A stretch of DNA of 24,557 bases, from positions 1 to 24,557 of IMG/VR virus record IMGVR_UViG_3300021133_000034; one strand, written 5' to 3'. The stretch comes from a virus. Taxonomy: Duplodnaviria; Caudoviricetes. Of this stretch, positions 6,510 to 11,648 are shown in pieces. The notes beneath the pieces were generated by a model. The model was given only the letters and a program-made list of their open reading frames with translations. It did no database searches and had not been told where the DNA came from. Made by a program: the position numbers and the translations under genes. Position 1 is the first letter of the stretch. Each line of letters starts with the position of its first letter.

Positions 6510-8459
6510 ATGATATTGGACAATGAACTGATTTACAAGATTTGGGCTACGAACGCTAATAAGCAATCGTTGGATTTCAAAAAGGAAAAGTCTAAACTAT
6601 TAAGACTGCAGGTAACGGGGATCGGTGCTAAAGACCTTATCAAAGAATTGAAGGATATGGAGCGTAAAGGCATACATAGACTTCGAAAGGAAATGGCAAT
6701 TACCAATGTTGATTTGGTGCATCGTGTTTTATTGCCGAGAAAAAAGATATATACCGCTAAAGGCGGCATCGAAGAATATAATCTGAAAACACCCGCACTT
6801 GTTGATGAATTTAAAGAGTTCTTAGCCAATGTTACAGGTTCATCGTCACTAAAGGCGTATATACGCGATGTGCTGCAAAAGCGGTTAGACTATGACCCCG
6901 AAGGTTTGAAATGGGTGGAAGTGAATAAGGACGGTGAACCATACCCATGCTTTAAATCCATCAATTCTGTTTTCGAATGGCATCTAAATGGCCGTAAGCC
7001 TGAATATGTGTTTTTCAGGTTATCGAAGCAGGAGATAAAGTTCTATTTACTCAATGGCGATTTGCCCGATTCAGCGAAGGAATTGGATATTTACCGTGTC
7101 GTTGATGACGCATTTGACAGGCTTATTTCATTCGATGGTGGTGGGGGATCTATTAATATCATTACAGAGGTTGATAATCCGTTTGGGTTCGTACCTGGCG
7201 AAATACTATCCGACATACCAGGTGAGGAGGGTAGCGAGGATTCTGATTCCTTCAATTGCTATATGTCACCATTGCAGCCAATTCACGAACTACTTAGTAA
7301 GTATATGTTTAATCGTTCCGTGTTTGATGTGGCTTATGCCCGTACAGCATATCCAAAGGAATGGATGAACAAATTTAAATGCCCTACCTGTGACGGTCAG
7401 AAGACGGTAGATAGCCAACCATGCCCCGAATGTAATGGGACCGGTGCGTTACCGCATCAGAAAAACAGCGATACCCTTGTTGTCGAGTTCATGAATGACG
7501 TTAATAAGAATGTGCCTGTGCCACCGATGGGGGTAATTGATTCGCCTATTGATGGATTGCAGTTCATGAAGGATAATAATCTGACATTAGAGGAGATGAT
7601 TTATTACACTCTTTACGGCACATTTAAGCCAAGCCCCGGCACATCACAAAAGGTATCGGGCAATCGTGAAGGCCATGGCGGCAACGTGTCAAATACGGCA
7701 TTCGAGGCGAACATGAACGACCAATCTAAACGCGATGTGTTGCGGGACTGGGGTAATTGGACAGCATCCACTATTCAATGGTTTGTTGATATTTTTGGTT
7801 CATTTAAATACGAGGACTCCTATATTTCATGTGCTATCCTTATGGGTGATATGTACATGGAAGAATCCTCCGATGCTACATTTGATAGGTTGGATAAGGC
7901 GCGTATGGGGAATGCCCCGAAATCACAACTTAACTCATTGCAAATTGAATACCTGAATAATAAATATCAGAACAATCCACTCGACTGGTGGAAATATTAT
8001 GTAGCATATATTGCCGAGCCATTTATGTGGGATAAGACATCGGATGTTCTTTCGTGGGATATACCTATGTCCGACAAATTGAAAAAGATTTACTTCGATG
8101 AATGGTTTGATAGCAAATCTGATGATTACTTTGCAGCATTGCCTCGTAATGGCGTTGAGGAGGTCGTAAAAGCAGACTTAGAGGCTTATATGATGGATAG
8201 GTACAAAAAAGGTACTGAAACCGATAATCTGATGTTCACGTCAATGGGTAATAGTCTTTTTGTTGGCGGTAATGCTACCGTAATAAAAGGTAAGGAATTA
8301 AGCCCTACTCATACAGGCAAGACATTCAAGATAAGCAAGATGGATTCCAAATATGTTACCTTTGTTGATGATACGGGTAACACTATTGACGGTTATACGC
8401 GCGGGGATGTAGAAAACAAATCAGGAATCAGAGGTGGCGAACCATTAGGTATAAATTAA
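6510..8459 (+). CDS. Portal protein (with CxxCxG zinc-finger insertion and C-terminal extension)
   Basis: 649 aa, downstream of TerL; portal-like segments (DYDPEG..WVE, NPFGFVP, SPLQPI.EL); internal CPTCDG...CPECNGTG. Confidence 0.8.
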   Translation: MILDNELIYKIWATNANKQSLDFKKEKSKLLRLQVTGIGAKDLIKELKDMERKGIHRLRKEMAITNVDLVHRVLLPRKKIYTAKGGIEEYNLKTPALVDEFKEFLANVTGSSSLKAYIRDVLQKRLDYDPEGLKWVEVNKDGEPYPCFKSINSVFEWHLNGRKPEYVFFRLSKQEIKFYLLNGDLPDSAKELDIYRVVDDAFDRLISFDGGGGSINIITEVDNPFGFVPGEILSDIPGEEGSEDSDSFNCYMSPLQPIHELLSKYMFNRSVFDVAYARTAYPKEWMNKFKCPTCDGQKTVDSQPCPECNGTGALPHQKNSDTLVVEFMNDVNKNVPVPPMGVIDSPIDGLQFMKDNNLTLEEMIYYTLYGTFKPSPGTSQKVSGNREGHGGNVSNTAFEANMNDQSKRDVLRDWGNWTASTIQWFVDIFGSFKYEDSYISCAILMGDMYMEESSDATFDRLDKARMGNAPKSQLNSLQIEYLNNKYQNNPLDWWKYYVAYIAEPFMWDKTSDVLSWDIPMSDKLKKIYFDEWFDSKSDDYFAALPRNGVEEVVKADLEAYMMDRYKKGTETDNLMFTSMGNSLFVGGNATVIKGKELSPTHTGKTFKISKMDSKYVTFVDDTGNTIDGYTRGDVENKSGIRGGEPLGIN

Positions 8460-8473
8460 AAAAACACAATAAT

Positions 8474-8962
8474 ATGGCAAAGATTTATTCACTCAAACCT
8501 GAATCTGTAAAGATTTATAATGACCTAATAGCCGCATACCGTGGCGAGGAGCAATTCTACAAAGCAGCCTCTATTTGGTGCGATAATGAAGGCTATAAAA
8601 TTCCGTTTTTTGTGGACCTCATGCACTATATGCACCACAGGGCGCACAGAATAGAACGCAAATTAACGGATACGGGTACTTTACCTGTATTGCCCGACAT
8701 TAAAGCGATTCAGCCAAAAGCAGCGGGGTTAATATCGCTCATTAACGAAGGATATGAACGCGCGTATAAACTTTGTGAAATGCTGAATGATGACGTGAAG
8801 ATGGCAGGAGATGATGTAAAGACAGTAAACCATCTTTGCAAATATGTTGCGAAGCAGGAGGATATTGTCAACAAGTTTGCCGAAATGCTGAAAAGACTAA
8901 AGGGCGTTGATGAATCAAATCGCGGAATGTTGATGATGCTAATTAAAAAGATATTTTCATAA
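8474..8962 (+). CDS. Ferritin-like protein with degenerate ferroxidase centre
   Basis: Colinear with prokaryotic Ftn over about 160 aa (FY..ASIWCD.EG, A.RI...L.D.G....LP.I, D..T.N.L..YV..Q, L.RLK.V). Confidence 0.75.
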   Translation: MAKIYSLKPESVKIYNDLIAAYRGEEQFYKAASIWCDNEGYKIPFFVDLMHYMHHRAHRIERKLTDTGTLPVLPDIKAIQPKAAGLISLINEGYERAYKLCEMLNDDVKMAGDDVKTVNHLCKYVAKQEDIVNKFAEMLKRLKGVDESNRGMLMMLIKKIFS

Positions 8963-8978
8963 TTTAAAACCAAAACAA

Positions 8979-9524
8979 ATGGCAAGACCAACAAACACAT
9001 CGAAAGAGGCAGTTACGCCTGAATCCCCACTTGACAATCGTTATGTGTTCGGGATCAAAGGTAAACAACAGACGCGGGATGGTAAGTACCTAACCGATGA
9101 CGAAGGCAAGGTGCGCCACTACAAAGGCGATATATCCGAACTTTGCGGTACAGGCGTGGGTTTGGAAGACTATGAATATCGTATTCTAAGGCTCACCATG
9201 CAGAGTAGGCGTTATTCCGGTCCACCATCGCCACAACAGACCGAAGGTTATGTCACTAAAATCAAAGTGATGGAGAAATTTGGTCATAACGTGAAAATAT
9301 TTGAGGAAACAGCCGACTACCAAAACCATTGCATTGATTGGCAACTACCCGGTACGCCACGTGATATTATGTGGTTATTCAAAGTCGGAGAAGTAAAAGA
9401 CGGCGATGAATTTACGGAAGAAAACGGACAACTCCAATGCAAATGGGTTACTTCCAAAGCAAATGGTACGGAGATTGTCAATTATAGGCTTTTAATCACC
9501 CCAAAAACTAAAAACGATGCTTAG
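8979..9524 (+). CDS. Hypothetical protein in head module
   Basis: 181-aa ORF with A-rich start, overlapping the next gene by 8 nt. Confidence 0.8.
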   Translation: MARPTNTSKEAVTPESPLDNRYVFGIKGKQQTRDGKYLTDDEGKVRHYKGDISELCGTGVGLEDYEYRILRLTMQSRRYSGPPSPQQTEGYVTKIKVMEKFGHNVKIFEETADYQNHCIDWQLPGTPRDIMWLFKVGEVKDGDEFTEENGQLQCKWVTSKANGTEIVNYRLLITPKTKNDA

Positions 9525-10329
9525 TATAGCTGCACAAACGAAATTGCTCAAATCGCTTAAATTCAGCGACGAAAATATTGCCGAACTCATGAAAGTTGGC
9601 GAATATGATGTTGATGTACCGATATTGCATATCCTTTCTGACGAAGAACTCAACACCCTTAAAACCAATATAAAGTCAGGGCATGAAAATGCTTATCCTG
9701 AAATATGGGGCAAGAAAATGAACGAGAAACACAAACTTGGATTGTCAACTACGGATGCAAAGGACGAGGAAAAGGTTATTACGGCTATGCAAGCTAAGGC
9801 GGTAAAAGATGCAGGAATATCGAAAGATAGTCAGGTATCCGCGCTTGAATCCGATATGCAGAAACTCCGTGACGTTATAGCCGAAAAAGAAGGCGCATTA
9901 ACGCAATTCCAGACCAAACTGAAGGAGCGAGATGAATTTGATACCTATGTATCCATGCTGCCATCAGAACGCCTTAAAAACCTAGATAACGACATTCATG
10001 TGTCAATGGCAAAAAAGCATGTTGTCATCGGTGAAAAGGGTGTTGCAATTAACCCACAGACGGGTGAACCATATAAAGATACTTTAATGAACCCGCGACT
10101 TGCCAAAGATGTTATTCCTGAAATATACAAGCAAAACAATTGGTTGGAAGCAGAATCCGCCGCAGGGGCGGGAAAACGCACATTAGGAACTCCATCTAAC
10201 ATGGTGCAAGGTAAAAATACCGCCGCACAAAACGATTTGGTTGCTAAGGCTCAGGCGATGTTCCCCGATGATGCACGGCAACAGGCATCATACATTACCA
10301 CACAAAGACTGGCAGAAGCTAATAGTTAG
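9517..10329 (+). CDS. Putative capsid scaffolding protein
   Basis: Charged, coiled-coil-like middle region and flexible Gly/Ala C-terminal linker; immediately upstream of the capsid gene. Confidence 0.65.
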   Translation: MLSIAAQTKLLKSLKFSDENIAELMKVGEYDVDVPILHILSDEELNTLKTNIKSGHENAYPEIWGKKMNEKHKLGLSTTDAKDEEKVITAMQAKAVKDAGISKDSQVSALESDMQKLRDVIAEKEGALTQFQTKLKERDEFDTYVSMLPSERLKNLDNDIHVSMAKKHVVIGEKGVAINPQTGEPYKDTLMNPRLAKDVIPEIYKQNNWLEAESAAGAGKRTLGTPSNMVQGKNTAAQNDLVAKAQAMFPDDARQQASYITTQRLAEANS

Positions 10330-10358: not shown

Positions 10359-10389
10359 GGGCGGGTGTTTCTACACCTGCCTTTTTTTT
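10359..10389 (+). terminator. Rho-independent terminator
   Basis: GGCGGGTGT-TTCT-ACACCTGCC stem followed by T8. Confidence 0.9.
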
Positions 10390-10404
10390 GTTTTAAAAAT
10401 AAAT

Positions 10405-10432
10405 TTTGCAATTCAAAAAATGTATATCTTTG
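10405..10432 (+). promoter_or_regulatory. Promoter for the capsid/tail operon
   Basis: Exact -7 box TATCTTTG at 10425-10432; TTTG at 10405-10408 with a 16-nt spacer, shorter than consensus. Confidence 0.6.
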
Positions 10433-10477
10433 TATCGCATTTGGCAATCAGCATCCTTCCAAATAGCTTCCTTCCTT

Positions 10478-10558
10478 GCGGTTGTACCGCCTGAAAAGTG
10501 AATGAGTTGTACTCCATGCTTCGGTGATGTTCACCACTCATAGTATCACTTCACTTTT
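10478..10558 (+). promoter_or_regulatory. Structured 5' leader of the capsid gene with three TGT-loop hairpins
   Basis: GCGGT-TGT-ACCGC, GAGT-TGT-ACTC, GGTGA-TGT-TCACC; enclosing stem AAAAGTGAA/TTCACTTTT. Confidence 0.6.
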
Positions 10559-10571
10559 TATTTACCTAACA

Positions 10572-11648
10572 ATGGCAAATTACGTAGAATCAAACCTACT
10601 CGCATTTCAGGGTGAAATGCTCAAAGGTCTCGCAAGTCACGAAGTACGTGAACTTGTAACAATGGCATTACCTTATGCCCTCAAAAATCAGCAGTTCTAT
10701 CAGAATCTGTATGATATTCGCTCAATCAAAGAATCCGTACAACGTCCTGTTTATGGCTATCAGTTCAACCGTATTGCTTCAACAGGCGGCACAGGTATGA
10801 CTACTTTCCCAACGGGTACACTCGGTAGCGCAACACAGATACCGCTTACTTTCGTGTCATTCACAGAAACATTCGCCACCTACAACGTATCGGGTTTGGA
10901 CAACGTGTTTGATTTCATCAGGATCGCAGGCAATGAGTTCAGTCAGGCAATGCGTAATATTCGTACAAGGCTCTCTACGTTTATCGTACAGTCCCTTTAT
11001 ACGAACCGTACCGCTTATGGTCTGCCCGGTCTTAAAGGCGCAAACTTCAACCCTGCCACAAACGCATTTGAAATTACCAATGCAACTCCGTGGAGTACGA
11101 TTACTTCCATTATGAGGCAAAACTCCTATGGCGGCAATATGTATGATGTGTTGGCAGACCCTATTATGTTCCAGTCGTTTGAGTTCTCTCAGGCACAGGG
11201 TACAGAAAATGCTACCAACCTCGCATATGCCTTCGTTAAGCAAGGCGTACCGGGACCGGGCAAAGGTCGTTTCTCAAATGTTTGGGAAGAAAACAACCTC
11301 GGTACTACCGTTCCGATTGAAGTCGCTTACACCAATGGCACAGCCCTTGTAATGCCAGAAAACGCATTTGCCTTTGTTCCGTGGATGCCAGCGAACTATT
11401 ACAAGCCCGGATTCTCTAAGCGTTTCGACGGCTACGAAGGTGGTTATGGGACAATCGGTGATGACCGTATCCCTGAATTGCAGTATCAGCTATTTGGTTG
11501 GAACACACAGACCGACACATCGGGTTCTAACGGTTACGCACAGGGTCAGACACAGTCATGGCAGATTGGTATAACAGTAGCGTGGTTGACAGCCTATTTG
11601 TCCAATGCAGGTGAAACGCCTATCTATCAATTCGCACTTGTTCCTTAA
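10572..11648 (+). CDS. Major capsid protein (start reassigned to ATG 10572)
   Basis: 358 aa; MANY..SNL..Q N-terminus and RPV.GY and DNVF motifs resemble Bacteroidota phage capsid proteins; follows the scaffold and has its own promoter. Confidence 0.8.
   Translation: MANYVESNLLAFQGEMLKGLASHEVRELVTMALPYALKNQQFYQNLYDIRSIKESVQRPVYGYQFNRIASTGGTGMTTFPTGTLGSATQIPLTFVSFTETFATYNVSGLDNVFDFIRIAGNEFSQAMRNIRTRLSTFIVQSLYTNRTAYGLPGLKGANFNPATNAFEITNATPWSTITSIMRQNSYGGNMYDVLADPIMFQSFEFSQAQGTENATNLAYAFVKQGVPGPGKGRFSNVWEENNLGTTVPIEVAYTNGTALVMPENAFAFVPWMPANYYKPGFSKRFDGYEGGYGTIGDDRIPELQYQLFGWNTQTDTSGSNGYAQGQTQSWQIGITVAWLTAYLSNAGETPIYQFALVP

Follow-up and report, generated by a model that had tools for sequence, protein, structure and literature searches.

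The locus raises the question of what a leader RNA with several like hairpins does in front of a phage capsid gene. In tailed phages, the matching of capsid to scaffold and portal and the silence of late genes behind a host-type promoter are usually ascribed to transcription. If true, a conserved gate on the translation of the capsid gene would represent a new layer of control, in hosts without Shine-Dalgarno pairing. An earlier note on this DNA had proposed a cis-regulatory switch that controls either capsid synthesis or late-operon antitermination.

The window (the whole stretch of 24,557 nucleotides analyzed here) is a tailed-phage head-tail module in which the terminase subunits, portal, a ferritin-like gene, a 181-amino-acid (aa) gene, and a putative scaffold are followed by a terminator, a promoter, the leader, and a 358-aa gene. 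The features surrounding the leader are as follows.

8979 to 9524, + strand: small conserved protein of 181 aa, encoded between the portal and scaffold genes of the near clade of relatives (see below)
9517 to 10329, + strand: putative scaffolding protein
10359 to 10392, + strand: intrinsic terminator-like hairpin with U tract, ending the terminase-portal-scaffold operon
10405 to 10432, + strand: promoter of the Bacteroidota housekeeping type, with TTTG (10405) and TATCTTTG (10425-10432)
10559 to 10574, + strand: Shine-Dalgarno-less initiation region and AUG, with A at -12 and -3 (determinants from the accessible part of PMC6847099)
10572 to 11648, + strand: major capsid protein, 358 aa

The 358-aa product shares 36% identity over its whole length with the protein annotated as major capsid protein in phage Pan5, the gene order also matches, and the product hits the virion structural protein family phrog_7231 (E = 1.6e-8). 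The scaffold is assigned by its position before the capsid gene (present in 12/12 genomes compared) and had no named database match. The ferritin-like gene (8474-8962; PF00210, E = 9e-7) lies inside the head module and is also found in L005, L006, L007, L022, and L023, where its place around the scaffold varies. Within the portal gene (6510-8459), residues 287 to 312 or so form a short CxxC-repeat stretch resembling the DnaJ central domain, below the cutoff. Two relatives carry tRNA genes between the scaffold and the capsid promoter (L014, 3653-3726; L405, 2767-2836) and others carry unrelated open reading frames (ORFs) there, which points to an insertion hot spot upstream of a conserved capsid promoter.

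Bacteroidota promoters have a -33/-7 consensus with a spacing of 4 to 5 nt to the +1 position, and initiation in such hosts does not use Shine-Dalgarno pairing but has adenine determinants of the translation start (both from the accessible part of PMC6847099). The predicted +1 is 10437 (10437-10438), giving a leader of 135 nt; the element had earlier been placed from 10441, a start that we correct to about 10437. The host is probably a member of the Bacteroidota, judging from a relative that lies within a genome labeled Chitinophagaceae, the fit of the promoter to the -33/-7 form, and an A at -13 or -12 in 20/20 leaders. The capsid promoter shares its form with the promoter of the leftward early genes and so would need no phage factor. 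That early cluster (272-2985, - strand) contains RadC-like JAB and LPD29 genes, and two of its ORFs, 272-526 and 1383-1622, are alike at both ends.

Three hairpins with different stems and one loop lie in the leader.

10478 to 10490, + strand: hairpin 1, UGU triloop, GCGGT-TGT-ACCGC
10504 to 10514, + strand: hairpin 2, UGU triloop, GAGT-TGT-ACTC, predicted to be melted in free RNA
10523 to 10535, + strand: hairpin 3, UGU triloop, GGTGA-TGT-TCACC

All three had been described in the earlier note, and a check against the sequence bore out their positions. The same check upheld the two alternative pairings proposed there, namely, AAAAGTGAA (10494-10502) with TTCACTTTT (10550-10558), a helix that stops 13 nt short of the ATG at 10572, and ATGAGT (10502-10507) with ACTCAT (10536-10541). 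The motif TCCTTCC does occur twice, as claimed (10454 and 10469), but the first copy belongs to a 5' hairpin that had been overlooked. The triplet is not what chance would yield at this composition: three hairpins with one loop appeared in 0 of 100,000 dinucleotide shuffles and two in 161. They are the sole Watson-Crick triloop hairpins with a stem of at least 4 bp in the leader, and they account for three of the four TGT-loop hairpins on the + strand of the window. The folding energy of the leader is modest (z = -1.94; 8/200 shuffles were as good). Since the energy barely beats that of shuffled sequences, the signal lies in the repeated loops rather than in stability.

We then looked at relatives. 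Capsid homologues at 35 loci, after the removal of duplicates, copies of the window, and two loci lacking upstream DNA, gave 21 distinct near-clade leaders including the window (42 to 65% capsid identity). By manual reading, all 21 keep at least two short hairpins with an NGY loop center; in some of them, an inner mismatch enlarges the loop to 5 to 7 nt. Among 60 hand-centered loops from 20 leaders (including Pan5 and L407), 56 had the NGY center, and 29 of these were UGU. An alignment of 18 leaders contained two-sided (compensatory) changes in 21/22 modeled pairs, and 88% of its cells paired, compared to 38 to 49% when the partners were slid by 1 to 3 columns; this alignment was fitted to the model, and the leaders, being related, are not fully independent. 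RNAalifold independently recovered the 5' hairpin (P1), hairpin 1, and hairpin 2, with 14/14 pairs compensated; on its own it did not recover hairpin 3. The element is confined to one place. The model matched once per record in 5/5 records, always at the capsid gene. When both strands of 12 genomes were scanned, runs of at least three NGY hairpins were found in five, every one in the capsid leader, although scattered pairs of NGY hairpins also occurred elsewhere.

The comparison extended the leader beyond the three hairpins, adding a hairpin at its 5' end, a pseudoknot, and a weak helix.

10437 to 10467, + strand: P1, the 5'-terminal hairpin from the predicted +1 (core, 10439-10444/10459-10464; conserved 14-nt loop, 10445-10458)
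10450 to 10454, + strand: 5' strand of the pseudoknot, in the P1 loop, pairing with 10516-10520
10516 to 10520, + strand: 3' strand of the pseudoknot, pairing with 10450-10454
10468 to 10477, + strand: upstream pyrimidine tract, which forms the weak helix under hairpin 1 with 10494-10502 when the leader is open

The arms of P1 covary freely (two-sided change in 7/8 pairs, 95% of cells paired; arm swap test, 0/20,000 permutations), and its loop is conserved. In 16/17 near-clade leaders the first base of P1 lies 4 to 5 nt after a -7-like element; in the window, the -7 element is 6 nt before the P1 core. The P1 loop can pair over 4 to 7 bp with a stretch 0 to 3 nt after hairpin 2 in 18/18 of the near-clade leaders listed, with positions set by hand (swap test, 175/20,000). 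Four different compensated versions of this pseudoknot exist (L006/L007/L023, L026, L014, and L011). The capsid tree does not place L006 and L023 as sisters, but as their leaders are alike, they were counted once. In L011 the entire P1 loop differs, and a 7-bp complement is present at the same site. The weak helix under hairpin 1 gave 153/20,000 in its swap test, with 9/14 residuals negative. A variant layout, in which a same-loop hairpin caps P1, was seen in L005 (3840-3927), L024 (259-346), and L407 (1352-1385); in L005 and L024 the pseudoknot pairing has turned into an ordinary nested helix.

A promoter lies just upstream, and each hairpin also reads as an interrupted inverted repeat, as would be expected if the repeats were palindromic operators read as DNA. 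However, the arms vary freely while the unpaired center is kept, the orientation is always that of the coding strand, and the G-U pairs, internal mismatches, and long-range covariation of the pseudoknot make sense only for single-stranded RNA. We thus regard DNA operators as very improbable. That the structure of the leader RNA is real and under selection is, in our view, highly likely.

Next, we focused on the alternative, closed fold, in which the middle of the leader pairs with the spacer before the start codon.

10494 to 10502, + strand: purine-rich switching strand, able to pair with either 10468-10473 (open) or 10550-10558 (closed)
10536 to 10558, + strand: spacer, which folds back onto the leader's middle part when the leader is closed (from cognate versus noncognate pairing)

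We swapped the partners of this pairing, the middle of the leader and the pre-AUG spacer, among 15 of the 21 leaders (close relatives L007, L009, and L037, variants L005 and L024, and the partial L034 were omitted). Cognate duplexes had a mean energy of -13.7 kcal/mol, compared to -9.8 kcal/mol for permuted ones (0/20,000; 15/15 residuals negative), and the result was reproduced with 17 leaders. Cognate spacers also outperformed their own shuffled versions (mean z = -1.63; 14/15 negative). Lengthening the upstream segment weakened this comparison with shuffles (mean z = -0.94; P ≤ 0.05 in 4/19 leaders). Control segments were null in 9 of 10 cases, the remaining one giving a P value of 0.015. 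Because the register varies among leaders, what is conserved is the ability to close and not the exact helix of 10494-10502 with 10550-10558. The alternative fold of the earlier note is therefore real in kind, while its ATGAGT/ACTCAT helix represents one local register within a broader, conserved pairing between middle and spacer. As read from sequence comparison, the capsid leader is a conserved structured RNA with repeated loops, a 5' hairpin, and a competing helix.

Folding predictions suggest that the free leader tends to be closed. The joint formation of all sites has a probability of <0.01 in 11/19 leaders, and the pair probability of hairpin 2 is 0.0 in the window and at most 0.1 in 7/19 leaders. 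In L008, L009, L037, and Pan5, all loops are predicted to be displayed even in free RNA (0.32 to 0.47). When P1 and the three hairpins were forced in the window, the 10494-10502/10550-10558 helix persisted, and the unpaired probability at -20 to +3 rose only from 0.40 to 0.42; across 19 leaders, forcing the hairpins raised this probability by at least 0.1 in 8 and lowered it as much in none, in a program that handles neither the pseudoknot nor a bound protein. The pseudoknot should favor the open fold. The closed helix mostly ends 10 to 25 nt upstream of the AUG and not on it.

We give an even chance to the model that the leader is a translational ON switch, closed when free and opened by multivalent binding, that ties capsid synthesis to the products of the upstream operon. 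Because a host-type promoter would be active without help from the phage, the capsid message would need a brake. In the free RNA, the middle strand and the hairpin 2 sequence would pair with the spacer up to a point 13 nt short of the AUG. A protein binding several loops at once would stabilize the open fold, with its three hairpins, pseudoknot, and helix under hairpin 1, and this would leave the Shine-Dalgarno-less initiation region free for capsid translation. Capsid protein would then be made only once portal and scaffold exist. As for the cis-regulatory switch suggested earlier, the part that stands is a structured element that appears selected, has repeated loops and an alternative fold (from covariation and cognate pairing), and would control the capsid gene; its anatomy is larger than described.

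The position of the element at the extreme 5' end of a long late transcript, and the 7-of-8 U tract that follows the closed helix in the window, would also suit transcriptional control, either as attenuation in the leader or as processive antitermination of the head-tail operon (nut, put, or ANTAR-like). Yet only 3/20 leaders have a helix whose end is no more than 3 nt from the best U tract, a crude scan from the leader to the end of the window found no strong intrinsic terminator, and the motif is not repeated at other promoters. Control at this level seems quite unlikely, and the late-operon antitermination put forward in the earlier note is not borne out.

If the leader is an ON switch, its partner may be sought through the loops. 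Within a genome, 7-mer loops are identical at 5.16 of 7 positions on average, compared to 4.05 when permuted (0/20,000; 17 genomes, comprising the near clade, Pan5, and L407). Local duplication of hairpins could add to this likeness. As loops covary within a genome and differ between lineages, we infer a partner that travels with the phage. This pattern bears on another reading, in which no phage partner is involved: the open fold could be a 5' stabilizer or a translation enhancer read by host factors (the ribosome, bS1, or an RNA chaperone), or the two folds could respond to temperature or folding kinetics. P1 begins at the predicted +1, a position at which a hairpin would protect the end of the transcript, capsid protein is needed in high output, and the hosts initiate without Shine-Dalgarno pairing (accessible part of PMC6847099), all of which fits such a role; a conserved host ligand, however, poorly explains lineage-specific loops that change together, and we judge this reading improbable.

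Genes common to at least 7 of the 12 genomes (BLASTP) belong to the head-tail module only. The 181-aa protein (8979-9524) is the sole shared head-tail gene without an assignable virion role, and it is a candidate partner by exclusion only. A homologue occupies the same position in a more distant clade (hhalign E = 2.5e-4), and the small protein had no Pfam, PHROG, or fold match; two AlphaFold models (pLDDT, 75 and 78) consist of a long beta-hairpin, a helix, and one or more strands. L008 (6928-7212) and L009 (6936-7187) carry a second, distant-clade-like copy of the small protein gene after the adaptor gene. When the other genes are controlled for, no candidate gene has a similarity that convincingly tracks the loop sequence (partial correlations of -0.34 for the small protein, 0.18 for the scaffold, and 0.27 for the capsid; the last has P = 0.047, uncorrected, in one of four tests).

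This capsid value, the only nominal correlation, would be expected under negative feedback, with unassembled capsid protein or scaffold binding the loops and repressing capsid translation; repeated loops suit an oligomeric ligand, and P22 scaffold autoregulation offers a loose precedent. Against this, the loops lie 37 to 82 nt upstream of the AUG, and since the fold that displays them competes with the spacer helix, binding should open the leader and not close it. Negative feedback is, in our view, unlikely. The partner is the least certain part of the explanation; we take it to be a product of the upstream portal-scaffold operon. Given the ON-switch mechanism, the small protein is the first, tentative candidate, followed closely by the scaffold, and capsid or host proteins would account for the rest.

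The plan of the leader recurs beyond the near clade. In a distant clade around L016 (capsid 28% identical), the 17 leaders listed consist of a promoter, two to four like-loop hairpins, and the AUG, with different loops and, as a rule, without the P1 pseudoknot. In 7 of 12 leaders examined in this clade, the last same-loop hairpin overlaps a helix that ends 8 to 15 nt before the AUG; two of the clade's records are proviruses. Pan5, a sequenced and named phage, carries a version of the leader (L280, 4709-4874) with P1, four GGU triloops, and a Shine-Dalgarno-less, A-rich start region like that of Bacteroidota-type phages. Its pseudoknot pairing comes after the fourth hairpin, and no matching -7 element was found. 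Pan5 is labeled as a Pseudanabaena phage, a host label that may deserve a check. In its widest form, our proposal is a family of capsid-gene riboregulators in tailed phages of Bacteroidota, in which a pseudoknotted leader would use its three or four like loops to count a protein encoded in the portal-scaffold operon upstream, and only then license capsid translation, while loop code and protein diverge together between lineages into orthogonal RNA-protein pairs. We consider the whole of this doubtful but possible. Lineage-specific loop codes could supply orthogonal RNA-protein parts.

No Rfam family covers the leader. Against Rfam 15, the window at E ≤ 1 gave only a subthreshold L20_leader match on the upstream terminator (31.7 bits versus the required 58.7), and 15 relative loci at the gathering score gave only two tRNAs. 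We found no description of such a capsid leader in the literature, with most subscription papers and the supplement of PMC5737381 outside the scope of the search; the accessible main text of that survey of 224 motifs does not mention capsid. The leader is apparently undescribed in print.

Four known systems invite comparison. The nut/boxB sites of lambda and the put sites of HK022 occur at more than one promoter and serve terminator read-through. Their likeness to the capsid leader is that a long phage transcript opens with hairpins; the leader, however, is present in a single copy per genome, with no strong intrinsic terminator downstream in the crude scan. In P22, the scaffold represses its own gene posttranscriptionally. 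The likeness is that of posttranscriptional control linked to procapsid assembly, but the element described here belongs to a separate transcript, lies before the capsid gene, and suggests activation.

ANTAR targets are dual hairpins with hexanucleotide loops bearing A1 and G4, usually overlapping a terminator (accessible part of PMC3369931). As in the capsid leader, several short like-loop hairpins are present, one of which competes with an inhibitory structure (same source). The capsid leader differs in having NGY triloops, or 5- to 7-nt loops centered on NGY, at three or more sites. The leader departs from the ANTAR definition, as the loops are not hexanucleotides of that kind and the helix is within 3 nt of a U tract, as terminator overlap would imply, in only 3/20 leaders. 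The ANTAR domain (PF03861) was found in 0/5 complete phage records, and control genomes gave no match either.

In the Com-mom system of phage Mu, a phage protein binds a hairpin loop motif beside a translation inhibition structure and exposes the start signals (accessible part of PMC6483171). The proposed opening of the capsid leader would be translational activation of this type. The Com loop motif, CC(N)2-3GAG, is absent from the UGU loops of the capsid leader, and the small protein (8979-9524) lacks a CCCC finger. Com itself is a CCCC zinc finger acting on a DNA modification gene through about one hairpin (same part of PMC6483171), in contrast to the three or four loops, the 5' hairpin with a pseudoknot, the capsid gene, and the Shine-Dalgarno-less host seen here. 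The likeness lies in the predicted structure, in which the hairpins compete with or adjoin a putative translation inhibition structure.
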